DNA of 63,888 bases, the filler included, from Reclinomonas americana ATCC 50394 (taxonomy: Eukaryota): the NCBI GenBank assembly GCA_048213135.1. It is 6 parts of 3 records of this genome, joined end to end, with 100 filler letters (N's around TTAATTAATTAA, not from the genome) between each part and the next. Parts side by side here need not be neighbours in the genome. Positions count along the whole stretch, not along the records: positions 1 to 8,033 come from PS015067.1; 5 more parts are not named here. The stretch is one strand, 5' to 3'. Shown here in pieces: positions 1 through 48,660 of this stretch. The notes beneath the pieces are model-generated. The model saw only the letters and a program-made list of their open reading frames with translations. It ran no database searches and had not been told where the DNA came from. Every line of letters starts with the position of its first letter. Position 1 is the stretch's first letter. The position numbers were made by a program, and so were the translations under genes.

Positions 1-188
1 ACTACTAACACTGCACCGTCCACCTCCACAACAGTAGGATTGTCGTGTTTGTATGTTGACTGTGTGTGTTCATGGTGTTTGTGTGTATTTTTTGAGCAAG
101 TGCACCTCCTGCCTGGCTGTCGTAAACGGAGAGCTGACAACCGTGACTATCAGGATTCATGACTTGCTCCCCTTGCAGAAGACATTTA

Positions 189-2291
189 CTACTTTTGAGC
201 TCTTCTCAGCATGGCCACGGCGTCGTTCATGGCGTCTCTGTGTGCAGACAGCCAAAAAATGAGAAACTTGTGGGTCACCAGAGAGAGGGTGGCTCAACGC
301 ACCTGACGTGCGGCGTACTGGTCGCCGATATGATTCGCACGTGGACCTCTCGCTCCGGATTCTTGTTCAGATGCATGAACTGGTTCTCCAGGTACTGACA
401 CGCTTGTTGTGTCGCATCCGTGCCATCCGCCAGTGCTGCTCACAAATCAGCCATTGAACGCAAAGAATAAAGTCAACGAGGATCGCACAGGCAGACGCAC
501 GTCTGAATTCGGGAAACGCTCGGCCAAAAGCCTCCGGCTCCTGCTCGAGACGCTCACGAAACCTGTCGTACTTGACTAGCAGCAGTAGAACCGGCCTGCA
601 GCAGCCAGAGAGTGAGTCACTTTGGCACGACAAGTCAGGTGTGTGGCGAGAACAAACCGTGCAAACGAGAGATCCTGGTTCACCCACTCGTCGAAGAGTC
701 GCATGCTGTCATCCATGTACGAAGGTCGATCGAACCTATATATGCACACGCCAGTCAGCATGCATCGCACACACACTGATTGTTTTTGTGGCACAGTGCA
801 CGCAACTCGCTCATGGCCACGAGAAACAGAATAACAGTGTCTGCTCGGGCCAGCGTGCTCGACAACTTTGTCCATGAATCGTGCTCCATCCGACTCCCTC
901 CGCTCTCGAGTAATCTGCACACAAGCACAGTCAGTGTGCAGTACCTCACATTTTTTTGGCCTCGCTTCACCAACCTCAACGGCGATCTCCCGCTCAACAA
1001 CGTGGTCTGGCCGGTGCAGCGGTAACATCTCACCATGTCTGCGGAGGTCGGGGCAAACAGTGGATTCGCAATCTTTGCCGCCTGTTGTACGAAGCTGCAG
1101 ATCGAGAAGACAAGGTTGGCGGGGGAAGAGCGGGGTAGCACGAGCAAGGCAGAGGTGGCGCAACTACAGAGTGCCATCGTCGATGCCATATTCGTCGCGT
1201 TGTGCGCGCACCAGCCGCATGGCTGTAACAGACACATGAGAGGGGAACCAAGCATCGCTCTTTGACAGCCACTCGACACGCAACAGCTGTCGGCAAGGAG
1301 TTGCTCGATACCCGTAGCCAGCTCCGTCGAGAGCGGCTCATTCTCGTACACCGCCTGCAGCACTTGTCGTGCTTGCGCCTGGAGGCATCGACGGGTGGCT
1401 GAGCATGAGAGACGCGCAGTCAGGAGCACGGACGCGCAAACACGCACCTCATTGGCGGGGTTGTCAAAGGAGAGCTGCAGCTCTTCATGTGCCTCCAGCA
1501 TTCTCGCGATGCCATGCCTGCAGGCAGAGAGGGTGAGTACAGCTTCTTGAACACAAGTCTCCACTCCAACAACGCACGTCGCTGTACTCCGAATTCTGCA
1601 CAGCGCCAAGACGGGGAGTGAGAAGAGGGCGGGAGGAGAGGTGGGAGAGCAGAAGCGCGAGTCACGAAACAGTTCCACCAACAGCTCCGCCTCCACCGGC
1701 AGCAGACCACCGCCCCACAGCATCTTGGCGTGACTGCACAACGTCGACACTCCGGAGCCAGCAGCGCCTGCATGCAAACGAAAAAATGAGTCGTCACAGG
1801 CGCACGAAGCGCACGGAAACGGGCAAGGGAGGCACACGCACCAAACGCCACCAGGGTTCCCAGCGGCGACTCCCCCTTGCCGTATTCGAACTGTGACGAG
1901 GTCACTCTCCACTCGGTCAGCGCCACCAGCCACCCGCGCCACTCGCTCTCCGACTCAAAGGTCAACCAGTACTCCCGTGGACCTTCATGCAGCACGTCAG
2001 CTCGCGTGAGACCCCCAGCAATCTCTTTCCAACCCACCTTTGTCGAGCCGTTCAGTGTGTATGCACACGGCCCACGGCCGCCCTTTCCGACTGTCTTCGC
2101 ACGTGACTGCGCGGACGGATGACGACGGAATGCAGCCGCGCGTGTCGCCACTCTCCGCCTTGGCAGCGTACCGCAGGTCGGTGAGACGGAGGGTAAAGTA
2201 GCGTCTCCTCCACTAAACCATCATCAGAGTGAGGCGAGCAAGCGAGTGACGACGATGACGACGACAACGACGCGACGCAACCGCTGTCCAT
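189..2291 (-). CDS. PH-like domain fused to a degenerate heterotrimeric G-protein alpha subunit (multi-exon; 5' end uncertain)
   Basis: Spliced translation reads ...REYWLTFESESEWRGWLVAL (PH C-terminal strand/helix), then LVAFGAAGSGVSTLCSHAKMLWGGG, HGIARMLEAHEELQLSFDNPANE, QRDEYGIDDGTLYFVQQAAKIANPLFAPTSADMVRCYRCTG, RLLESGGSRMEHDSW..VILFLVAMSEFD, MDDSMRLFDEWVN, PVLLLLVKYDRF..FPEF, YLENQFMHLNKNPEREVHVRIISATST. This is colinear with the whole G-alpha fold. Stop TAG at 189-191. Confidence 0.85.
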
Positions 2292-2549
2292 TTCTCGCCC
2301 TCCTTGAAGCCCCACCCGGACCGCAGCACTGGATTGCTATCACATAGAGGCGGTGACAGCCCGCTGTGTAGTCACGNNNNNNNNNNNNNNNNNNNNNNNN
2401 NNNNNNNNNNNNNNNNNNNNNNNNNNNNNNNNNNNNNNNNNNNNNNNNNNNNNNNNNNNNNNNNNNNNNNNNNNNNNNNNNNNNNNNNNNNNNNNNNNNN
2501 NNNNNNNNNNNNNNNNNNNNNNNNNNNNNNNNNNNNNNNNNNNNNNNNN

Positions 2550-2879
2550 GGTGTTGGCGATGCCCGCTTTGTCTCCGCGGTGAGTCGTCTTTTCTCTCCC
2601 TCTCTCCATGCGTGTGAGCGTGTCACTGAATCAGTCGCCCCGCAGTCTCGTGATCGTCAGCGCGCTCTGGATGTGCTGCGCGGCGGCTACTTTGCTCTGC
2701 AGTGCCACGAGCCAACCAGGTTTGACAAGTGGATGCGCACACACAGAGGCGAAAGAGCACTCACACTGCTGCGACCACAGGTTATCGCTGTGTCGGCTCA
2801 CAACTTTTGTGCATCGCCACCTGTTGCGTTCTTTGTCTGTCTGCTTGTACGCCGATGACGACGACGACTCACTGGCATG
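2550..2879 (+). other. Unassigned spliced coding fragment between gaps
   Basis: GTGAGT..CAG intron at about 2580-2634 and a second GT..CAG intron at about 2720-2780; reading frame and family not resolved. Confidence 0.3.
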
Positions 2880-3774
2880 NNNNNNNNNNNNNNNNNNNNN
2901 NNNNNNNNNNNNNNNNNNNNNNNNNNNNNNNNNNNNNNNNNNNNNNNNNNNNNNNNNNNNNNNNNNNNNNNNNNNNNNNNNNNNNNNNNNNNNNNNNNNN
3001 NNNNNNNNNNNNNNNNNNNNNNNNNNNNNNNNNNNNNNNNNNNNNNNNNNNNNNNNNNNNNNNNNNNNNNNNNNNNNNNNNNNNNNNNNNNNNNNNNNNN
3101 NNNNNNNNNNNNNNNNNNNNNNNNNNNNNNNNNNNNNNNNNNNNNNNNNNNNNNNNNNNNNNNNNNNNNNNNNNNNNNNNNNNNNNNNNNNNNNNNNNNN
3201 NNNNNNNNNNNNNNNNNNNNNNNNNNNNNNNNNNNNNNNNNNNNNNNNNNNNNNNNNNNNNNNNNNNNNNNNNNNNNNNNNNNNNNNNNNNNNNNNNNNN
3301 NNNNNNNNNNNNNNNNNNNNNNNNNNNNNNNNNNNNNNNNNNNNNNNNNNNNNNNNNNNNNNNNNNNNNNNNNNNNNNNNNNNNNNNNNNNNNNNNNNNN
3401 NNNNNNNNNNNNNNNNNNNNNNNNNNNNNNNNNNNNNNNNNNNNNNNNNNNNNNNNNNNNNNNNNNNNNNNNNNNNNNNNNNNNNNNNNNNNNNNNNNNN
3501 NNNNNNNNNNNNNNNNNNNNNNNNNNNNNNNNNNNNNNNNNNNNNNNNNNNNNNNNNNNNNNNNNNNNNNNNNNNNNNNNNNNNNNNNNNNNNNNNNNNN
3601 NNNNNNNNNNNNNNNNNNNNNNNNNNNNNNNNNNNNNNNNNNNNNNNNNNNNNNNNNNNNNNNNNNNNNNNNNNNNNNNNNNNNNNNNNNNNNNNNNNNN
3701 NNNNNNNNNNNNNNNNNNNNNNNNNNNNNNNNNNNNNNNNNNNNNNNNNNNNNNNNNNNNNNNNNNNNNNNNNA

Positions 3775-4932
3775 GGGTACCGCCACACTGTGCAGTCGGG
3801 CACCGACGAGGTGGCCAGCAGGGTCTCGAATTCGTCCACCGCGCGCACATCGGTGGTCTCGTCGTCGTTGCCAAAGTGCCCCTGGATGCCATCGACAGTC
3901 AACTCGGTGGCGCTCCACATGCTACGCGGTGGAATACCGCCAATGGTGGCACACGCCACAATCGTCGTCGCGGCAGGCGCTGCTGCCTCGTGAAACGACG
4001 ACGACGGACTGAGCACCGGCACTGGCCGGCTGGCCGCCAACACAGCCAGTGCCCCGCCGAGCCCAAACCCGACAATGGCAACACGCTGGCACCGCACGCC
4101 ATGAATCACCGCATACACGTCGTCCATGGCCGCCTCCCAGTCAAAGTTGCGCATGCGAAGAGCGATCTGTGGTGCAAGCGCGCGAGGTGAGCTCGTGCAC
4201 TGTCGCGGTAAAGGCAAACACACGCACCTGCGCATCTGTCAGCACCTCGCCACGAAACAGATCCGGCACCACCACTCGACACTGCAAGGCGGTGTGGAAA
4301 AACAGCGCCAACGACGCCACATGATCGTCGGAACCACGAGCACTGCCACGACAACGAAGAAACAATTAAAGGCCTGCTGCATGCATCTAGGGAAAAAAGG
4401 TGTCGTGCAACTCATGCAACACAATGAGCGCACAGTCGCCAACACAGTCGTCGGCGACCTCGGCACCAAACATTTGCCCCGGCACCACACCCGTCAGCAC
4501 CTCGCGATCACGACCGGCCAGAGACCCGCTCGAAGCAGATCCTTTTTAAAAAAAAAACACAAGAAAGCAAGGAAACAGTGAGTAATGAGGGGGAGGGAGC
4601 GTCATATGCACAGAAAGAACGAGACAACGAGGCGAGGGAAGAGCAGTCAGGCATTTGTTCGGAAACTTAAAAGCCTCACCTCGCATGCCATACGACGACA
4701 ATGACGAGCCCACCGACGACGACGGAGTGAGCGAGGACAGTCGCGGTGAGTCACGCATGGGCAGCACTGTCGCCGGCGACGACAACTCCTTTTCTTCCAC
4801 TGGTGCAGCAGCTGAAGCAGGCACAGAAGGAGTGCGCAGACGCAGTGGTGCAGATGAGCGCACTCGCCACTGCATGCGGTGCGCGGCTGCGGGCATTGCG
4901 TGGGACGAGGGTGGCGAGGATGACGACGCCAT
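3775..4932 (-). CDS. Dienelactone hydrolase family (alpha/beta hydrolase) protein; 3' end lost in gap
   Basis: VVVPDLFRGE, DWEAAMDDVYAVI, RVAIVGFGLGGALA, IQGHFGNDD and TVWRYP motifs occur in DLH order, after a Ser/Pro-rich N-terminal extension. Confidence 0.8.
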
Positions 4933-5147
4933 TCTCCGTCTCTCAAACAAGCGCGCGCGTCTGAAAAAAAGAGAACGTCGAACGTCGATAACTCTTTTTG
5001 CGCGCGACAACAACAACAAAGCAGCGTGTCGTGTGTAAGCTGAGGCAAGCGATAGTACCACTATAGGTGGCATGAAGAGAAAAAGGAGGTGAATGGTGGA
5101 TGTCCTGTGCAGTCTCATTGTGCTTGTTTAGTTGACAAAGAGGGGGA

Positions 5148-8033
5148 ATGTCTGCTGGTCTCGTTCCTGGTGGCAAGGACAAGGTGAAAGTNNNNNNNNN
5201 NNNNNNNNNNNGAGAGAGAGGGAGAGAGAGGGGGGGAGGATGGAATGCGCGTATGCCTCTCTCTTACTCTTTGCTTCTCTCTGTGTGTATGTGTGTGTGC
5301 CTCTCACGTCATCTGCCTTGCACACTCTTCTTCTTCTCTGTCTCCCCCCGTCGTGTGTGTGTCTCTCTCTGTCTCTCTCTCTTCATCTCTCTCTCACTGT
5401 CTCTCTCTCTCTTTTCTTCTCCCGCTCTCTGTCTCTCTGCCTCTCTGTCTCTCTCCCTCTCTCACTGTGCATTTCTCACACACACAGAGGATGAGGACGA
5501 GCAGCAGTCGTCATTTGCGTCGTCGCGCGAGAGGAGAATGGCGGGAGGAGTGATTATCAGCACGGGATCGTCTGCGACAACGACCTCCGCCACATTGTCT
5601 TCTTCGTCGACACAGCCGACGATTCAACGCAAGTTGTGTGAGAAAGAGAGAGACTGAGACTCAACCTTGTCCCTCCTCTCTCTCGCCCCTCACTCGCCCT
5701 GCAATCCCCCCTGTTGCTCACTAACTTACTGACACTGCACCAAGCATTCATTCTCCCTCGCCTGCAATCCCCCTGTCGTCCTCCGCTCTCCCCTTTTCTC
5801 TCTTTCTCTCTTCACCCTCTCTCTCTCTCTCTCTCTCTCTCTNNNNNNNNNNNNNNNNNNNNNNNNNNNNNNNNNNNNNNNNNNNNNNNNNNNNNNNNNN
5901 NNNNNNNNNNNNNNNNNNNNNNNNNNNNNNNNNNNNNNNNNNNNNNNNNNNNNNNNNNNNNNNNNNNNNNNNNNNNNNNNNNNNNNNNNNNNNNNNNNNN
6001 NNNNNNNNNNNNNNNNNNNNNNNNNNNNNNNNNNNNNNNNNNNNNNNNNNNNNNNNNNNNNNNNNNNNNNNNNNNNNNNNNNNNNNNNNNNNNNNNNNNN
6101 NNNNNNNNNNNNNNNNNNNNNNNNNNNNNNNNNNNNNNNNNNNNNNNNNNNNNNNNNNNNNNNNNNNNNNNNNNNNNNNNNNNNNNNNNNNNNNNNNNNN
6201 NNNNNNNNNNNNNNNNNNNNNNNNNNNNNNNNNNNNNNNNNNNNNNNNNNNNNNNNNNNNNNNNNNNNNNNNNNNNNNNNNNNNNNNNNNNNNNNNNNNN
6301 NNNNNNNNNNNNNNNNNNNNNNNNNNNNNNNNNNNNNNNNNNNNNNNNNNNNNNNNNNNNNNNNNNNNNNNNNNNNNNNNNNNNNNNNNNNNNNNNNNNN
6401 NNNNNNNNNNNNNNNCTCCTAACCTTAACCTTACGTACGACTACGTCGCCAACGACGACTACTACTATTCCTCCTCCTCGTCATACCCTCCTCGTCTCCT
6501 CCTCTCCTTCCTTCTCTTCTTCTCTTCTCCTACCTCTCTCTCTCTCTCTCTCTCTCTCGCCGCCTCACTCGCCCCTCTTTCGTCCCTGCAATCACCCCTG
6601 TTGCTCACTAACTTACTGACCGTGCACACGCAAACATTCATTCTCCCTCGCCTGCAGTCCCCCTGTCGTCCTCCGCTCTCTCCACCCTCTCTCTCTCTCC
6701 ACCCTCCCCTCTCACGCCCCTCTCACGCCCCTACAGTCCCCCCCTGTCACACTCTCACTTGCTTACCTGCACACACAAGCATTCATTCTCCCTCGCCTGC
6801 ATTTCTCCCCACCCTCCCCCTTCTCTCTTTCTCTCTCCACCCTCCCCTCTCTCTGTCTTACCCCTGACTCTCCCTGTAATCCCCCCTGTTGCTCACTAAC
6901 CTGCTGACCCTTCACCTAAGCATTCATTCTCCCTCACCTGCAATCCTCCTGTCGTTCTCCAGTGAACTCACCTTCTCTCTTTCTCTCTCCACCTTCCCCT
7001 CTCTCTGTCTCACCCCCTCACACACTCTCTCACTCTCTCTTTCGCCCTCTCACGTCCCCCTTCTCCCTTCCCCCCTTCTCCCCCTTCCCTCTTTTCCCCT
7101 CACCCTCTCACCCTCCCTTCTCCCCCATGCAGAGAGGACCCACGTCTTGCGCGTCTTCGCGATGTGCACGTGGATGCCGACAAGGCAGCGCAGTCGCATC
7201 GCCGACGCATTCATGAGGCGGAGATTGTCAGTGCTGCCTCTGCGGCGGCGGCGGCAGCGGAGAGCAAGAAAGCCGCGGCGGAGGATGAGGCGCAGCCAAT
7301 GGCCATGTCGGATGAGGAGGAGGGCGGTGGCGCGCGAGTGTTGCGTTTCTTTTTTTTTTTTTTTGGAGAAGCAGGTGTTGTCAGGTGAGGCAACTCACAC
7401 GAATGATTCGGTGTGTAGCGTGGCCAGACACGAGGTATCGTCCGAGGACGAAGAGGAGATTCAAGATCGTCGCCGTCGTGCGCTCGCCAAGTTGCGCCGT
7501 CCCTCCTCTCCCGGCTACCCCCTTTTTCCCTTCCCCCTCTCACCTTCTCCGCCACCCGCTGCAGACGACAGGCCATGGTGGCGAAGGAGGAGGAGGAGCT
7601 CATGGCGCGTGAGGAGGAAGAGGAGGAGGAGACCGACGAGGGTGACGATGAATCGAGCGAGTACGAGACGGAGACTGACGAGGAGGAGGAGACGGGATTC
7701 GGTCTGGCGCGCATGATGAAGCCACAGTTTGTGTCCAAGTCGGAGCGCGACACCATTCTCGAGCGTGAGCGACGTGAGGAGGAGGACAAGAAGCTGGAGG
7801 AGGAGCGTCTGAAGCGGCTAGAGGAGCGCAAGAAGGAGACGCACCAGATGCTGGTGCAGGAGATTCGGAAAGAGGAGGTTTGTCTCGCCACCTCCCCTCC
7901 TCCAATGCGCACAACTCATCACTTCATCACACGTGCTCAGGAGGCCGCCAAGAAGGGTGAATTCAGCTCCGACGAGGACATGCCCGACACGTCGGATGAC
8001 GAGAACAACGAGGAGGAGTTCAATGCGTGGAAG
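5148..8033 (+). CDS. MFAP1: Microfibrillar-associated protein 1 (spliceosomal B-complex factor, Spp381-like), partial
   Basis: EDPRLARL, RRRIHEAEIV, acidic tract SSEYETETDEEEE, MMKPQFVSKSERDTI, DMPDTSDDENNEEEFNAWK; truncated at the linker. Confidence 0.9.
5690..6960 (+). repeat. Intronic minisatellite plus CT microsatellite inside MFAP1
   Basis: The unit CTGCAATCCCCCTGTTGCTCACTAAC...AAGCATTCATTCTCCCTCGCCTGCA recurs at about 5699, 6586 and 6874, with a partial copy at about 6745. Confidence 0.8.
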
Positions 8034-8133
8034 NNNNNNNNNNNNNNNNNNNNNNNNNNNNNNNNNNNNNNNNNNNNTTAATTAATTAANNNNNNNNNNN
8101 NNNNNNNNNNNNNNNNNNNNNNNNNNNNNNNNN
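8034..8133. other. Artificial scaffold linker N44-TTAATTAATTAA-N44 (also at 21603-21702, 35679-35778, 39992-40091, 48561-48660)
   Basis: An identical 12-mer with stops in all six frames sits at the centre of exactly 100-nt N blocks, five times. Confidence 0.95.
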
Positions 8134-15242: not shown

Positions 15243-15982
15243 ATGTACGACTACGCTCTGGCCCTGCGCACACTTGGCCTGTGCACCTTCTTCCTCTTCT
15301 TCAAGGTCACTCTCATCTCTGTGTGCGTTGTGCGTTGTGCATCAACACGCATCTGACAAGAATACACTCACACACACACAGATGTGGGCCACTGGCTTCT
15401 ACACCGCTTACCACCGACGCAAGGAAGGCCGCCCAGCTGCACCTGAAGTTGCGTGCACATGCTCTGTGTACGTGTCGATGATGATCACAACACTCAGTGC
15501 ATGCATTCTTGCAGGACCGACGCCGTGATGCACAGCTGCTGGCGGCCGAGGGTGGTGCCGCCACGACATATGCCACTGGGGGTGCAGGTGCGCCCGCAGC
15601 CGGCGGCGCAGACATGTCATATGTGGAGCGCGGAGTGGCGATGTACAGGTCAGAGAAGAGAGAGAGAGAGTTTTTCCGATGCAGGAGGTGCTCATTGTGC
15701 ATGCTCCTCAGAAACGATCTGGAGAACATCCCCATCTTCCTCATCATTGCCGTGTTGCTGGTGCTGAGCAGCCTGGTGGGCTTGGATTTCCGGGAGGATT
15801 CGAACCCGGCACCGGCGCAAGTCGCCTACTTTATCATCTTTACAGTGGCGCGGTATGCGCACTCGGTGTGCTACCACTTTGCCTTGCAGCCGTGGCGCAC
15901 TGTGGCCTTTGCGGCGGGTGTTGGCATGTCGTTTGCAGCTGCCATTCAGCTCTGCGTGCAAGTGTTCAACATTGTCTCGTGA
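15243..15982 (+). CDS. MAPEG family (MGST1/PTGES-like) membrane protein, copy 1
   Basis: LFFK|MW..RPAAPE|D..VERGVAMYR|NDLENIPIF..FTVARYAHS..LQPWR; three introns restore the frame. Confidence 0.92.
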
Positions 15983-16174: not shown

Positions 16175-16846
16175 ATGACATTCGACATCCAACTCGACAT
16201 CCGCACGCTCACCGTGTGCACCTTCTTGCTCTTCGTAAAGGTACTGTGCCTCGCAGCGTGCATGTGACGCGCCTCTCTGTCTGCCTGACAAAGTTCGTGT
16301 GCAGATGTTTGGCGTCGGCATCTACACGGGCGTCGCTCGTCGCTCTGAGGGACGACCAGCGGCACCGGAGGTGAGTCTGCGCTCTTTCGTTGCCTTGCAC
16401 TCCTCTGCAGTCTGCTCACCGAGAATGCACTGGCGAAGGACGCACGCAATGCATCGACGGCCACTCGCAACGAGGCTCTCGTTTCCGGTGGAGGCGACTC
16501 GAACCCGGCGACCGCGTACGGTCGCGTGGGCAGTGGAGCGGCGCCCGCTGCCAGCATCTCGTCAAAGGTGGACCGCGCTCAAGCCATGCATCGGAACGAT
16601 CTGGAGAACATCCCCATCTTCCTCCTCATCGCAATCCTGCTGTACATCACCAGCAACGCCGACTCATCGGCTTCGGCGCACGTGGCCTACTACATCATCT
16701 TCACTGTCGCGCGTTTTGCACACTCGTTCGCTTTTGCGCTGCAGTTGCAACCGTGGCGGAGCATCTCGTATGTCATGGGCTTGTCCGTGACGTTTGCCGC
16801 CGGCATCCACGCCATGGTGCAAGCGTTCAACGTCTCCGCTCTCTGA
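16175..16846 (+). CDS. MAPEG family (MGST1/PTGES-like) membrane protein, copy 2
   Basis: LFVK|MF..RPAAPE|D..VDRAQAMHRNDLENIPIF..FTVARFAHS..LQPWR. Confidence 0.92.
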
Positions 16847-16943: not shown

Positions 16944-19900
16944 TTAAACCAAGCCAGCGGCGACCTCGAGAGATCGACCCGCCGCGCCCTGAGTGTACAG
17001 GCACGACACCTCAGCCGCCGTCAGCGGCCGAGCCCACACCGCAAAGTCGTCAACGTCGGCCGAGGCGCTGTACACACCACGACCATCGGCACCGATAAAA
17101 GTCGAATAGTTGTTGGTGCTGTCCAGCCACTCGGTGCCGGTGTTGCCGATTGCACCAGTGCCCACATTCACGCCGTCGCGGTACGCTGTCACGCGATTCG
17201 CCGCACGGTCGAATGTCGCCACAACATAGTGCCACTGTCCGTCGCGAACCTCGGCACCAATGTCGATACGAGGCATGCCAGAGGCACGCGAGTTGAGGAA
17301 TGTGGCGTACGATGTGCTGAAGATCCAGCCAGTATTCGCACCAGAATACCAGTCCTTGTTGGAGAACAGCGCCGAATCAATGGTGGACGTGGTTCGAATC
17401 CAGGCGCCCACGGTGAAGCCGGCCACTTCGGTGCGGAACACCGGGGCCAAGCTGGTGCCGAATGTCACTGCCCAGTCGTTGGCGTAATTCGAATAGCTGG
17501 CAGTGTTGCGGAACGAGGCGGCTTGACCGAACCGACCAGCGATGTATCGCGCGGAACCAGTGCCGTTGGGAGCGATAGTGCCCGCCAGGGTGGTGGCGGG
17601 GCCGGCGGCCAGGTTGCCGTCGAACTTGAGGTATGCACGCAAGCCGGTGCCTGCGCTCGGGCACGTGATGGCCGACACCGTGTCGCATCGGGCACCGGTG
17701 AAGCCGGCCTTGCACACGCACTGACCAGTGCTGGAACACGAGGTCGTGTTGGCGGTGACACAGTTGCAAGCCACACAAGTCACAGTGCTCGCGCTGCAGT
17801 ACGTGTTGGCGGGGCATGTGATGCCCGAGCAGGTTGGCGCTGCAAGGCCAGCAGCAACTGGAGGACACAAGAAGAAGATGAAACGACATTGATGTTAGTC
17901 ACCAACAATTCGGCGAAGCAGGCATCGGCAAAACATGCAATGCTACGAAACTCTCCAGCGACCGACCCGCCGCGCCCTGAGTGTACAGGCACGACACCTC
18001 AGCCGCCGTCAGCGGCCGAGCCCACACCGCAAAGTCGTCCACGTCGGCCATGGCGCCGTACACACCACGACCATCGGCACCGATAAAGGTCGAGTAGTTG
18101 TTGGTGCTGTCCAGCCATTCGGTGCCGGTGTTGCCGATCGCACCAGTGCCCACATTCACGCCGTCGCGGTACGCTGTCACGCGATTCGCCGCACGGTCGA
18201 AAGTCGCCACAATGTAGTGCCACTGTCCGTCGCGAACCTCGGCACCAATGTCGATACGCGACATGCCAGAGGCACGCGAGTTGAGGAATGTGGCGTACGA
18301 TGTGCTGAACACCCAGCCGGTATTCGCGCCCGAGTACCAGTCCTTGTTGGAGAAAAATGTGGAGTCGTTGGTGGACGTGGTGCGAACCCACGCGCCCACT
18401 GTGAAGCCGGCCACTTCGGTGCGGTACACCGAGGCCAAGCTGGTGCCGAATGTCACTGCCCAGTCGTTGGCATAATACGAGGAGCTGGCAGTATTGCGGA
18501 ACGAGGCGGCCTNNNNNNNNNNNNNNNNNNNNNNNNNNNNNNNNNNNNNNNNNNNNNNNNNNNNNNNNNNNNNNNNNNNNNNNNNNNNNNNNNNNNNNNN
18601 NNNNNNNNNNNNNNNNNNNNNNNNNNNNNNNNNNNNNNNNNNNNNNNNNNNNNNNNNNNNNNNNNNNNNNNNNNNNNNNNNNNNNNNNNNNNNNNNNNNN
18701 NNNNNNNNNNNNNNNNNNNNNNNNNNNNNNNNNNNNNNNNNNNNNNNNNNNNNNNNNNNNNNNNNNNNNNNNNNNNNNNNNNNNNNNNNNNNNNNNNNNN
18801 NNNNNNNNNNNNNNNNNNNNNNNNNNNNNNNNNNNNNNNNNNNNNNNNNNNNNNNNNNNNNNNNNNNNNNNNNNNNNNNNNNNNNNNNNNNNNNNNNNNN
18901 NNNNNNNNNNNNNNNNNNNNNNNNNNNNNNNNNNNNNNNNNNNNNNNNNNNNNNNNNNNNNNNNNNNNNNNNNNNNNNNNNNNNNNNNNNNNNNNNNNNN
19001 NNNNNNNNNNNNNNNNNNNNNNNNNNNNNNNNNNNNNNNNNNNNNNNNNNNNNNNNNNNNNNNNNNNNNNNNNNNNNNNNNNNNNNNNNNNNNNNNNNNN
19101 NNNNNNNNNNNNNNNNNNNNNNNNNNNNNNNNNNNNNNNNNNNNNNNNNNNNNNNNNTTGGCCGTTGCTCGAGCATGAAGCCGTGTTTGCCAACGTGCAC
19201 TGGCAGGGAACACTGAAAGTGGCACAGTCGACAGTCAGCTGCAGTGGCGGCCAAGTGCGACGCATGCATCGATCACACGTACCAAGTTACGGTGTTGGCG
19301 TTGCAGTACGAGTTCGTCGGGCAAGACAAATTGGCACACGTGTTGGCTGCGCAACGCTGCAAATGTTGAGAAACAAACGAACGTATGAACAAGGCTCACA
19401 ACTTGGCACGCAACTGCCACCAGTCAGCCCAGCAGCGGCTGTGAAGTGACGTGGAAGAAGGCGATGTGTGAGCGAATGAGTGGATGGACATCGACAAGCA
19501 AATTCATGCACAAACCTTCCAACGACTTGCCAAGCGCTCCTTGCTGCGCCAGACACGAGACCTCAGAAGCCGAAAGCGGACGTGACCACACGGCAAAGTC
19601 GTCGACGTCGGCGTTGGTTCCCCAGTATCCGCGACCGTCGGCGCCAAGGAATGTTGAGTAGTTGCTGGTGCTGTCAAGCCACTCGGTACCGACAGTTCCG
19701 ATCGCACCAGTGCCGACACTCACGCCATCGCGGTATGCCGTCACGAGATTAGCCGCACGGTCAGCAGTCAGCACCAAGTGATGCCACTGGCCGTCGCGTG
19801 ACTCGGTACCAAGGTCGACACGGGTCATGCCAGAGGCACGAGCGTTGGCAAAGGCGACATTCTTGGAGTTGAACGCCCAACCAGTGTTGGAACCAGAGTC

Positions 19901-21602
19901 CCAGCTCTTGTTGGAGATAATGGCCGAGTCTACCGTCAGCGTGGTGCGCACCCACGCCGATACGGTGAACCCGCCACCGAGCCGGTACGCGTCGGCGAGA
20001 TTTGTGCCGAGCGTGATGGCCCAGTCGGCCGTGGCTGCCGACGATGCCTTGGCGTTGCGGAACGCAGCAGCCTGGCCAAAGCGACCAGCCGTGTAGCGCG
20101 CCGTGGCGGTGCCGAGTGCAGCAACTGATCCCGACACCGTGGTCGTGCCCGCCGCTGTCAGATCGCCATCGAGCTTGAGGTACGCCTGCAACCCACTGGC
20201 GGTGCTCTTGCAGAACGCCGTCGTCACCGTGCCGCAGTCGATACCCTCCCATCCGAACTTGCACTGACACTCTCCAGTGGCGCTACATTGCACCGTGTTG
20301 TTCTTGATGCATTGGCAAGGCAAGCTGATGGGACAAGAGAAACCATCAACACAAAGAAACACCACCAATCACGCCCTCTTTGTGCACGCACCATGTGCCC
20401 GTGTCGGGATTGCAGTAGTTATCCGTGGCGCACGTCACACCGACACAGTGATTGACTGCGATGCAAACCGCACTGCAGTGAGCACAGAAGAATCTGTAGA
20501 GTGCAACACAGACTGCGTACGCAACTGTTGGACAGTGTCAGCGACAGCGTGTACATCTGAATGTCGGAGGCCACAGTGGGATCCGTGAACACACGAATGT
20601 AGTACGGTCCACCACCGCCAGGCAGCAAAAACTCAGNNNNNNNNNNNNNNNNNNNNNNNNNNNNNNNNNNNNNNNNNNNNNNNNNNNNNNNNNNNNNNNN
20701 NNNNNNNNNNNNNNNNNNNNNNNNNNNNNNNNNNNNNNNNNNNNNNNNNNNNNNNNNNNNNNNNNNNNNNNNNNNNNNNNNNNNNNNNNNNNNNNNNNNN
20801 NNNNNNNNNNNNNNNNNNNNNNNNNNNNNNNNNNNNNNNNNNNNNNNNNNNNNNNNNNNNNNNNNNNNNNNNNNNNNNNNNNNNNNNNNNNNNNNNNNNN
20901 NNNNNNNNNNNNNNNNNNNNNNNNNNNNNNNNNNNNNNNNNNNNNNNNNNNNNNNNNNNNNNNNNNNNNNNNNNNNNNNNNNNNNNNNNNNNNNNNNNNN
21001 NNNNNNNNNNNNNNNNNNNNNNNNNNNNNNNNNNNNNNNNNNNNNNNNNNNNNNNNNNNNNNNNNNNNNNNNNNNNNNNNNNNNNNNNNNNNNNNNNNNN
21101 NNNNNNNNNNNNNNNNNTCAGCAACTCGGCAGTGCCGGCAGGGTTGCCGTTGACCAGCGCCAGCTGCGTGACACCATCGGGTCCGAGCACGCTGAAACCG
21201 AGGTTCAGATGATTGTTGGGGTCGTATGGCGATCCAGACGGGCACGAGCCGCTCTGCACCGCGAACAGATACGGCGCGACACCCGGCGGCGAGAGGCGGA
21301 TGGTGGCCAGCTCCGCAAACGTGGTGAACTTGAAGTAGTCCACGTCGGCAGGCACATCAATGCTGCCGGTAATGACAGTCGGTGTTGTGCTGCGCACCAA
21401 CGCACCGAGCGAGGTGGCCGTGGCGGGCGTGTCGTTGTCCTCTGCAGCCAGAGAGCAAGTGAGTGTGACGTGCAGCGCAGTGCGTGCGTGGAGACGCAGC
21501 GGTTACGTGACGCACCATTCGGGTCACCGTACTGCCGCTGCGCGCCAAGTGTGTCGTCCAACTGAGGACCGTCAAACGCCGTGGAAATGTACGGCTGGAC
21601 GG
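16944..21602 (-). CDS. Secreted multidomain protein: matrixin-like C-terminal segment, PPC domain, EGF-like repeats, three LamG/ConA-like domains (5' end missing)
   Basis: PYISTAFDGPQLDDTLGAQRQYGD; EDNDTPATATSL..GSIDVPADVDYFKFT..PYYIRV; CSSTGQCVCKAGFTGARC; AYLKFDG..FTVGAWIRT..DGQWHYVVATFD..YRDG..VDDFAVWARPLTAAEV. Confidence 0.85.
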
Positions 21603-21702
21603 NNNNNNNNNNNNNNNNNNNNNNNNNNNNNNNNNNNNNNNNNNNNTTAATTAATTAANNNNNNNNNNNNNNNNNNNNNNNNNNNNNNNNNNNNNNNNNN
21701 NN

Positions 21703-35678: not shown

Positions 35679-35778
35679 NNNNNNNNNNNNNNNNNNNNNN
35701 NNNNNNNNNNNNNNNNNNNNNNTTAATTAATTAANNNNNNNNNNNNNNNNNNNNNNNNNNNNNNNNNNNNNNNNNNNN

Positions 35779-38700: not shown

Positions 38701-41700
38701 AAGCGCTCCTCCAGCAGGCCCGTGCGCTCCGGACTGATACCCTCCAGCACGTAGTCACAGCTACTCTTTGGCGGGATCGTGATCTTGGCTGGCGTCAAGT
38801 TGAAAATCGGCTCCGAGTCGCCGCCGTCAGCCGCCGCCGATGACCCCACTGCCTTCTGTGATCACGCCATGATTGAGATGAGAGGGAGGAGAGAGTGAGC
38901 TGAAGGCAAATGGTGAATGTACCTTGGGGCGGACCTTGGACCAGATGAGTTGACGAGGCTTGCGGCCGTGATTCTCAATGGTGAATCGGTGCACAATCGG
39001 ACGAGCCGTAAAGTGGTTGCCGAGGTACAGCTGCGACAAATCGCACGACGGTGCCAGAGGACTGCCGGTGCCGGAGGCCATCAGACGGACCACTGCAAGA
39101 GAGAGGGAAACGCAAGATTGATTTTTTAAAGTTCCACTCCATCAAGAACATGAATTCGATGGAAGGAGACAGACGGACGTACCACACTCGGTGCCATACA
39201 TGACTTGCACGATAAGGGCGTCGTTGAACTTAGTCGACTCGTCGCAGCAGGCCTGCATTCGCGTGAGTGAGCGCGGGGGAGCGTGACAGAAAAAAAGAGC
39301 AAAAGAGAGGTCGACCACGCACCACCAGCACCAGATCCAGAGTGCCATTGGCCGGAATCGTACCATTCTCCGGCAGCACCGTGAACCCAGTGTCGTCGCC
39401 GCGCTCAACGCAAGCCGAGAACTGCGCATCAACATCCGAGTGGTTGATCAGCGTAACAGAACGCTCCACGCGCTCCAGCACCGGAATCTGTCACGCAGCA
39501 TGAGCGCAAAACAACCAAGCGTGCAGAATCGTTGAATGGTGATGGATGGCTACAAACCTTGCCCCAGTTGACCTCTTCGACATTGACCGTGACTTTCGGG
39601 CCAATGGCATCGACACGCGTGCCCAAACACACGGGATCGACCATTGAGCCAATGACCTTGACGTAAATGGGATAAAAATGGGTGCCCAGGTGCAGTGCCG
39701 TGGCCGTGATCCACAGCACCGATTCGCAGTTGCCGTGCAGGATGCCACGCTCGGCGCTCAGCTCGAATCGCACAGCCTCCGATGTCGGCACTTGCAGTTC
39801 GTACCGCAGCGGCAACGGCGAGGGATTGGTCAAAATAATGGACTGCTGGTGCGGTTTGCCAATCAGGCACGACTCAAAGATGATCTCCGGCGACGACAGG
39901 CGGATCGACGGTACAGTGCACTGCGCGCGAATGGGGATCACCAGGAAGCCTGTGCGAACAAATGTACAAAGTTAGTCGTCACGGCGACACGNNNNNNNNN
40001 NNNNNNNNNNNNNNNNNNNNNNNNNNNNNNNNNNNTTAATTAATTAANNNNNNNNNNNNNNNNNNNNNNNNNNNNNNNNNNNNNNNNNNNNCGCTATCGA
40101 CGGCGGTGCTTGTCGACACGCACCATCACCCACGTCGGCAATATCCACATGCAGCTTGACGCTGTACTTTTTGATGGCCGACGGCATAAAGTCGACCTGC
40201 ACGCGATGCCGACTGCTGGCCGGGATGGTGCCGAACGACGGCACAACATCNNNNNNNNNNNNNNNNNNNNNNNNNNNNNNNNNNNNNNNNNNNNNNNNNN
40301 NNNNNNNNNNNNNNNNNNNNNNNNNNNNNNNNNNNNNNNNNNNNNNNNNNNNGAATTCACGGCGCAGCATGCGGCCGTCTTCCGGAATGTGCAGCTTGTA
40401 GCTGATGGGAATGTCGGACTCGTTGACCAAGTAGAACGCCTCGGTCGCCATGAAACCGTTCGACACGTCGCCAAAATCGAGCGAGTGGCGATCGACCGAG
40501 ATGCGCGGTCCAATGACGGTACCTCGCATGCGCAGGAACAGACTCTCCGGTCGACCCTCCACTCGCCACTCAAACTCCTCGTCCACCGTGCCCAGAATGT
40601 CCGAGCAGAACGACACCACAATCAGCTGCTGGTCGCCAGCGGCCAGTACACCACAGTCGGGTGTGAACTGGAAACGCCGACTCATGTCGGTGTCGGACGG
40701 CTGGTACCTGTACTGTGCGTCGATCTGGCCGCGATTCTCCAGCACGAACTCATACGAATGCTGCGAGTGGATAAACACTTCGCCGAGATCCACCGACGTG
40801 TAACTGAAGCACACGTCCGGCGCAATGCCTTCGCCAGAGAGCTCCAGTGGCAAGCGCATCTCACGACCACTCACATCACAGTAGGCCACGCGATCGTACA
40901 CCGCAGCCATCTGCCACACACAATTGTACACCAAATGAGGGAGACGAGAGTGGGAAGGAGATGAGCACCAAACATGGACACGCACCACGGGATGGAAAGT
41001 CACGGTAAAGGTGTGCTCGCCGCCGGGATGAATTTCACCGGCAATGGGCTCAATCAGGAACACCTCGTCGTCAAAGAGGAATCGATCGCTGTCCAACTCA
41101 CGTCGCAGTTGCTGCCGTGCAGGAGGGATGAGTGTGAGGAGAGGGGTAAACGGACGGACGGGAACGGCGCGTGCGTGCGACTCAACATCGTACTTGCGGG
41201 AAATGAGTGACAAGTCTCGCGCGGCGTTGCCACTGCGCGACTCTTCTGCGTTCTCCTGCACCGTCAACAAGAGGTTCTTGCGCACACGCGCCTGGTCCTC
41301 CTCCATTTCCGTGGCGAATCGCTTCCACTCGTAGACCACCTTCTTGCGACTGCGGTTGTGCAGCTTGAAAGTGCGCCGAGTGGTCAAGCCCAGGAACGAC
41401 GCCTCCATGCGCAGCGAACTCGTCGACAGCGTCACAAACAGATCTTCGGCGGTGCCCGTCAAACGAACCACCACATTCTCGCCCGTGTCGTAGGTCACTG
41501 TCAGCTCGCCCGTGTGCGTCTCATTGCTTGTCTGCGAAGCGAGCTGCGTCAGTGAAAGGGGATAGAGGGGAAGAGAAGGGGGAGAGAGAGAGAGAGAGAC
41601 TTACCAGTGGTGCAAAGGTGAGGATAAGTTGCATAAACTCGCCAACTTCCAGCGAAGCGTGTGCCGGCGACACGGTGAACATGTCGGAGGTGGCGAGGGT

Positions 41701-48560: not shown

Positions 48561-48660
48561 NNNNNNNNNNNNNNNNNNNNNNNNNNNNNNNNNNNNNNNN
48601 NNNNTTAATTAATTAANNNNNNNNNNNNNNNNNNNNNNNNNNNNNNNNNNNNNNNNNNNN

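Follow-up and report, generated by a model that had tools for sequence, protein, structure and literature searches.

A multi-exon gene of Reclinomonas americana encoding a PH domain fused to a divergent G-alpha-like domain

The window analysed here, a 63,888-nt stretch of the Reclinomonas americana ATCC 50394 genome (assembly GCA_048213135.1), carries in its region 1-2376 a minus-strand gene with many short introns that joins a PH domain to a G-alpha-like domain and spans 189 to at least 2336. The spliced model, built from exon coordinates (Table 1), comprises 14 exons and 428 codons, in which every codon phase fits and no in-frame stop occurs; unspliced, the same region holds 13-15 stops per frame. 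All 13 introns have GT-AG borders, measure 55-75 nt and are T-rich and A-poor, and a CTNAY motif lies 11-27 nt ahead of the acceptor in 12 of them. The exons show coding periodicity, with a GC content of 0.716 at third codon positions (GC3) vs 0.473 at second positions (GC2), and the frame closes with a TAG stop codon at 191-189. This is a real multi-exon eukaryotic gene that is 5′-incomplete in the assembly. The first-pass annotation of this DNA had described the helical domain and the introns as intact rather than decayed, a description borne out by the splice borders, the open frame and the third-position bias (0.72 vs 0.47 when rounded).

A few exon borders required a choice between alternatives. 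The putative micro-exon (exon 5) sits between introns of 75 nt and 60 nt, is needed to hold the frame and is flanked by good splice signals. A straight coding read-through of this region was rejected, as the Pfam alignment does not begin before exon 6 and the stretch offers a donor (GTGCGT), an acceptor (TGCAG) and a CTCAC motif; a 23-nt intron at 1540-1518 was likewise rejected as too short. After exon 9, an intron of 60 nt, or of 66 nt with its donor at 980, is favoured because the read-through of 809-1093 has 95 residues over only 74 profile positions. A 30-nt intron at 944-915 was set aside, since it falls outside the 55-75 nt range and the read-through exceeds the span of the profile by 21 residues.

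Table 1. Exons of the PH-G-alpha gene (listed 5′ to 3′) and other features of the window
Feature	Coordinates	Strand	Content and evidence
Assembly gap, 173 N	2377-2549		lies just upstream of exon 1
Exon 1 as visible (5′ partial)	2336-2282	minus	putative first PH strand GWGFKEG; acceptor AG at 2338-2337; direct reading only
Exon 2	2212-2038	minus	PH domain core, begins WRRRYFTL; PF00169 match
Exon 3, bridging	1982-1842	minus	PH C-terminal helix (ESEWRGW), linker of about 20 aa, hydrophobic strand before the P-loop; one open frame
Exon 4	1767-1671	minus	P-loop GAAGSGVST and the next helix
Exon 5, 18-nt micro-exon	1595-1578	minus	TGCAG acceptor, GTGCGT donor; least certain part of the model
Exon 6	1517-1448	minus	helical-domain helix; PF00503 alignment begins at its first residue (open reading frame residue 147 = profile position 67)
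Exon 7	1378-1285	minus	helical domain; PF00503 profile match and direct reading
Exon 8	1222-1168	minus	helical domain; frame differs from neighbouring exons
Exon 9	1094-975	minus	end of helical domain and switch I (DMVRCYRCTG at 1039-1010)
Exon 10	914-807	minus	G3 and switch II, ESGGS; PF00503 profile 144-217
Exon 11	735-658	minus	helix 3 region; direct reading
Exon 12	595-501	minus	strand and G4 (VKYD); PF00503 profile 252-279, E 0.022
Exon 13	435-303	minus	G5 region (SAT); PF00503 profile 284-319, E 0.0066
Exon 14	237-189	minus	short last helix and stop
Dienelactone-hydrolase-type (DLH) fragment	3774-4238	minus	PF01738, E 9.2e-6; cut by the 894-N gap
MFAP1 / pre-mRNA-processing-type open reading frame	7419-8033	plus	PF06991, E 2.5e-12; runs into the contig linker
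Two tandem MAPEG-family genes	15485-15982, 16349-16846	plus	PF01124, E 3.8e-11 and 4.2e-16
Tandem Laminin_G_3/EGF array	16944-17894, about 17899-18512, 19424-20368	minus	PF13385, E 6.5e-18 and 3.7e-16

The two domains meet within exon 3, a single open stretch that holds the last PH helix, the linker and the strand leading to the P-loop. Because this exon encodes parts of both domains, and separate genes would not share an exon, the PH-G-alpha fusion is real, in keeping with the earlier proposal that both domains belong to one gene; the exon with the PH core lies only 55 nt upstream of the bridging exon, and its phase matches. In a Pfam scan of exon-level pieces, exon 2 by itself matched PF00169 (E 1.2e-4, 23 bits, profile 18-75 of 105), and in the ESM Atlas it fell among PH clusters at 0.84-0.86, behind an unnamed top match at 0.90, which we treat as a lead only. 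The ends of the domain were read by eye: a strand GWGFKEG on exon 1 and, on exon 3, a strand YWLTF followed by the C-terminal helix with its conserved Trp, which is present on direct reading of the translation. A read-through of the in-frame intron between exons 1 and 2, its stop written as X, left the PF00169 match no longer than before (23.6 bits). The first two PH strands carry a basic pattern, K...RRR. Such a pattern is typical of phosphoinositide-binding PH domains, and the domain encoded here would fit that group.

Downstream of the linker, evidence for the G-alpha family comes from several contiguous pieces. Pfam matched PF00503 with three of seven translated open reading frames (ORFs), namely a 399-aa frame at 755-1954 (E 7.9e-7, 29 bits, profile 67-227), a frame at 367-708 (E 0.025, profile 252-293) and a frame at 275-439 (E 0.0023, profile 284-325), and with three of 13 exon-level pieces (profile 144-217, 252-279 and 284-319), among which three unrelated Pfam families appeared at chance level (E 0.06-0.2). 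The PF00503 pieces are collinear along both the profile and the DNA, with 29, 14.3 and 16.1 bits over 67-227, 252-279 and 284-319, and by rough addition these three non-overlapping pieces come to about 59 bits together. Residues 61-392 of the long frame, compared with the ESM Atlas, gave only G-alpha clusters among the matches listed, the best at 0.90 with 179 of 256 features. A phmmer search of the PDB with exon 13 returned G-alpha chains (Go, Gt3, Gz and Gi chimeras) in 36 of the 36 matches listed, at E 0.17-1.7; the other six of the seven pieces searched in this way (the long ORF, 809-1093 and exons 4, 9, 10 and 12) found no G-alpha in the PDB. The G-alpha likeness nevertheless appears to be more than chance.

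The P-loop exon calls for separate mention. Its translation (1673-1765) resembles designed WD40 repeats, at an E of 1e-4 that is reached only via seven summed repeats, and the resemblance consists of a ...TL.GH...VWG..F.P stretch; another PDB match of this exon was to a potassium channel, and we read both as chance. The identification of G1 follows instead from its position, from the G-x4-G-x-S-T pattern after a hydrophobic strand and from the intron that splits the first Gly codon. The helical insert is of normal length, with about 116 residues separating the P-loop helix from DMVR, and the profile match over 67-227 covers this region. The segment is best read as a complete but very divergent G-alpha-type domain, with a Ras-like core and a helical insert, that follows the PH domain after a short linker.

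The GTPase motifs of this domain depart from the canonical ones to different degrees. The motif strings quoted in the first-pass annotation do sit at the minus-strand coordinates quoted with them, and its statement that every motif is altered holds for the P-loop Lys, the G3 Asp and Gln and the G4 Asn, all of which are replaced, but not for G5, where the change is conservative, nor for the G4 Lys and Asp and the P-loop Ser-Thr, which are kept. Canonical G1 reads GxxxxGK[ST], and the Lys is needed for phosphate binding in P-loop GTPases; here G1 at 1767-1742 reads GAAGSGVST, with Val at the Lys position. G3, canonically DVGGQ (DxxGQ with the catalytic Gln), reads ESGGS at 907-893, a change of Asp to Glu and of Gln to Ser that lies inside the profile match 144-217, and the switch II Arg, Glu and Trp are retained after it. 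G4, canonically NKxD, reads VKYD at 576-565, inside the profile match 252-279. The G5 motif SAT had been counted as altered; in the alignment ISAT stands opposite TCAT of G-alpha-o, a Cys to Ser replacement. Switch I, DMVRCYRCTG, is presumably one residue shorter than the canonical stretch and has an Arg directly after its Tyr, so that the earlier assignment of Tyr to the arginine-finger position is ambiguous: given the one-residue length difference, either the Tyr or the next Arg may sit there. What has been lost is the set of residues most important for binding phosphate and for hydrolysis.

Both termini of the G-alpha-type domain differ from the usual arrangement as well. The last helix has, we believe, about six residues fewer after G5 than in canonical G-alpha, and receptor coupling by such a shortened C-terminal helix would be unlikely. 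At the other end, only about 20 aa separate the PH helix from the first core strand, and no amphipathic N-terminal helix lies beside the core. That the PH domain replaces the lipidated N-terminal helix, as first proposed, is correct only for this stretch next to the GTPase core, the true N-terminus of the protein lying in or beyond an assembly gap. The span originally given for the gene, 189-2291, is right at its 3′ end, where the stop codon lies, and falls short at its 5′ end, as the visible part of exon 1 reaches at least 2336. The ATG at 2291 that had been taken as the start does not share the frame of the PH exon, and it falls within codons of the first PH strand that read ...EKW... in the PH frame. 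As far as the upstream stop at 2374-2372 the PH frame is open but lacks an ATG, so an upstream exon is needed, and the acceptor of exon 1 was placed accordingly (Table 1); the 173-N gap, or the sequence past it, must contain at least one further 5′ exon and the start codon. This gap is entered by an open frame at about 2606-2550 that starts with ATG and may, at a guess, be the first exon. Farther upstream the sequence is broken by a second gap, of 894 N, at 2880-3773.

Several of the intron positions recall those of animal-type G-alpha genes. We take the coding exons of human GNAI to measure 118, 43, 142, 158, 129, 130 and 154 nt. On this assumption, intron 3 here corresponds to GNAI intron 1 (first P-loop Gly codon, phase 1), intron 6 to GNAI intron 3 (phase 0), intron 8 to GNAI intron 4 (phase 2, 19 residues before the Asp of DMVR) and intron 9 to GNAI intron 5 (phase 2, three residues before the Glu of ESGGS), and intron 12 (phase 1) presumably falls within a four-residue indel of GNAI intron 7. 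If this match holds, it would favour descent from a canonical animal-type G-alpha gene and would also lend support to the gene model. The part of Lokits et al. 2018 (PMC5896119) drawn on here gives GNAI eight coding exons and describes six borders and four split codons that GNAI, GNAQ and GNAV have in common.

From these features we lean, by a modest measure, towards the product being a nucleotide-independent G-alpha-like adaptor that is brought to membranes by its PH domain. A protein of this kind, presumably expressed, would carry a G-alpha-like domain that no longer cycles GTP and is either nucleotide-free or at best a weak, non-hydrolysing binder. The PH domain would supply recruitment to membranes or phosphoinositides in place of the usual lipid anchor, and the protein could then act as an adaptor that holds G-alpha partners at the membrane, whether G-beta-gamma, RGS- or GoLoco-type proteins, or an effector. 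Class-i pseudo-GTPases in the 2020 scheme of Stiegler and Boggon reportedly bind no nucleotide, and the loss of the P-loop Lys points towards that class.

Several observations weigh against this assignment. On the side of the PH domain, the best PF00169 score is 23-23.6 bits vs a Pfam gathering score of 25.1 bits, with the rest of the domain on two other exons so that it spreads over three exons and two frames, and separate scans of the 30-aa piece from exon 1 and of exon 3 gave no Pfam match, so that the first and last PH elements come solely from direct reading. No contiguous piece reaches the PF00503 gathering score either (best 29 vs 48.8 bits); the profile scan through which the first-pass annotation would have secured the two families thus matched both of them when run on contiguous pieces, but neither at gathering score. 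Neither the Pfam nor the PDB searches identified the P-loop exon as G-alpha, and the assembled sequence contains no start codon for the gene. The model itself includes one exon of only 18 nt, an ambiguous donor for exon 4 (1670 or 1682, a four-residue difference, with 1665 as another alternative) and an ambiguous end for exon 9 (975, 981 or 945, with 975 preferred and otherwise 981). The kept P-loop Ser-Thr, G4 Lys and Asp, G5 SAT and the Arg beside the switch I Tyr would allow residual nucleotide binding. Lastly, no relative was found in protein, metagenome or window searches.

A protein search with the 399-aa read-through ORF at 755-1954 found no relative at near or longer lengths, and a HMMER scan of 1.84 billion representatives with the same ORF gave 0 matches at E <= 0.001, in both cases with a weak query, since it contains translated intron sequence and an exon in the wrong frame. 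The PH exon and exon 9 were also run against metagenomes, where neither brought up a relative, and tblastn of the gene model against the window found no paralogue. Since a MAPEG-family neighbour in the window also lacked a self-match, the proteins of this genome are absent from the collection, and such blanks are uninformative on annotation. In the literature searched, whose reach did not extend to the main survey of G-alpha architectures and which was not joined by a search for the architecture across proteomes, we found no description of a PH-G-alpha protein. The text of de Mendoza et al. 2014 (PMC3971589), taken apart from its domain-architecture supplement, mentions none, nor do the portions of a 2025 choanoflagellate survey (PMC12716839) that we drew on; in PMC11788884 the two Pfam accessions stand in unrelated table rows.

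Among the alternatives, the locus could be a pseudogene, recently silenced or never expressed, that arose by duplication of a G-alpha gene, is now without its catalytic residues and 5′ end, and has so far escaped disruption by stops. The loss of all catalytic residues, the missing start codon and the lack of a found relative in the protein and metagenome searches would all be expected of such a copy. Against this stand the 428 open codons over 14 exons, the 13 intact GT-AG introns and the third-position GC bias, all maintained despite the divergence, together with a helical domain and an overall length that match a full G-alpha domain; the missing start, for its part, is explained by the 173-N gap, which lies 41 nt upstream of exon 1. 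Because an intact frame and 26 splice-site dinucleotides persist in a sequence that has diverged beyond the reach of phmmer, which would not be expected under neutral drift, we regard decay as unlikely, though it deserves serious consideration. We give still less weight to an unconventional nucleotide-binding G-alpha, a slow or non-hydrolysing binder of GTP or GDP that would remain some kind of switch. The retained P-loop, G4, G5 and switch I residues listed above, and with them the switch II Arg, Glu and Trp, speak for it, but it has to contend with Val for the P-loop Lys, Glu for the Mg-linked G3 Asp, Ser for the catalytic Gln and Val for the G4 Asn. In addition, the similarly degenerate extra-large G proteins (XLGs) of plants bind GTP-gamma-S far more weakly, according to the portion of PMC8584482 consulted.

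The visible gene might also be the C-terminal part of a larger multidomain protein whose head lies in or beyond the gaps at 2377-2549 and 2880-3773. The first visible exon begins at an acceptor without an ATG, the two gaps break the upstream sequence, and the DLH-type hydrolase fragment lies on the same strand beyond them. DLH enzymes are normally stand-alone proteins, however, and nothing connects the fragment to the PH-G-alpha gene; moreover, the open frame with a leading ATG at about 2550-2606 might itself be the true first exon. To this arrangement, which would be compatible with an adaptor function, we attach very little credence.

The reading as a membrane-recruited adaptor can be extended into a more specific proposal, which we offer as a long shot: a receptor- and nucleotide-independent G-alpha in which a permanently empty G-alpha domain, through recruitment dependent on phosphoinositides (PIPs), captures or releases G-beta-gamma or RGS-/GoLoco-type partners. 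G-alpha subunits are the textbook nucleotide switch. If the proposal were true, phosphoinositides would replace G-protein-coupled receptor (GPCR)-driven GTP exchange as the input, wiring lipid signalling into the heterotrimeric G-protein module, and the match of four or five introns to animal GNAI/GNAQ-type genes, if it holds, would place the origin of the gene in a canonical G-alpha of that lineage. A nucleotide-independent adaptor with a PH domain for the lipid anchor and N-terminal helix, and with the P-loop Lys lost, would also suggest a receptor-free route from phosphoinositide signals to G-beta-gamma or other G-alpha partners. The locus, a single orphan, 5′-incomplete and set in a gapped, stitched assembly, is of value as a well-defined, testable lead rather than as a result.

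The rest of the window offers limited context. Its GC content is 58.2% outside runs of N, and N gaps are many. Five identical spacers, each of 44 N, TTAATTAATTAA and a further 44 N, lie at 8034-8133, 21603-21702, 35679-35778, 39992-40091 and 48561-48660, and each introduces stops in every one of the six frames. The window is a pseudo-scaffold of separate contigs, and gene order across the spacers is therefore not real; only 1-8033 is physically linked to the gene described here. Within this part, the DLH fragment reads GFGLGG at the expected position of the nucleophile elbow, and the interval 5200-7100 contains long CT/CA-rich low-complexity runs (LSLSLS or SPSP when translated) around a 573-N gap. 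Elsewhere in the window, the first of the two MAPEG genes has its best relatives at 48-51% identity among 76 matches, those named by organism being bacterial, and the Laminin_G_3 array is of a secreted type, with a Cys-rich EGF-like stretch and a concanavalin-A-like domain, its middle copy being cut by a gap.

Compared with canonical G-alpha (PF00503), the domain encoded here has in common the Ras-like core, a helical insert of normal length, collinear profile matches, the Arg, Glu and Trp of switch II and the Ala of G5, and among the matches listed for exon 13 the best in the PDB were to G-alpha-i/o/t/z. It differs in the Val at the P-loop Lys, in ESGGS and VKYD, in an altered and shorter switch I and in a shorter C-terminal helix, and a PH domain stands in place of the N-terminal helix. 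Dynamin and AGAP/centaurin-gamma also combine a PH domain and a GTPase-type domain in one chain and are recruited to membranes in a phosphoinositide-dependent manner. This likeness is one of analogy only, as they belong to other GTPase families (dynamin and the Ras-like GLD), have another domain order and are active GTPases.

Closer parallels come from degenerate G-alpha proteins. In the part of PMC8584482 used here, plant XLGs are described as having weakly conserved or lost nucleotide motifs and as acting without nucleotide and still binding G-beta-gamma, with GTP-gamma-S binding up to two orders of magnitude weaker than that of the canonical subunit; their N-terminal region is long and Cys-rich and carries nuclear localization and nuclear export signals (NLS and NES), and the family is described as plant-only. 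Like XLG1-3, the protein studied here would place a degenerate G-alpha-like domain behind an N-terminal region that is not G-alpha, but its N-terminal module is a PH domain rather than a Cys-rich segment, and the kinship in sequence that was shown is that of the G-alpha domain. The neighbouring genes (Laminin_G_3/EGF, MFAP1 and MAPEG) give no plant sign that would speak for an XLG-type plant lineage. Among protists, the same portion of PMC8584482 notes deviant catalytic G-alpha motifs in Dictyostelium and Naegleria, and the section of PMC3641396 available to us describes EHI_186910 of Entamoeba histolytica as a G-alpha-like fold without nucleotide motifs, fused to PP2C. EHI_186910, likened here by description only, is again a degenerate G-alpha-like domain of a protist fused to a signalling module; its partner is a C-terminal phosphatase, whereas the partner here is an N-terminal PH domain. 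Fusions of degenerate G-alpha domains to other modules thus have precedents in the XLGs and EHI_186910, and the layout seen here, with its PH partner, is unusual. The XLGs show that a G-alpha scaffold is able to signal without nucleotide, and a second, independent case would broaden that lesson.

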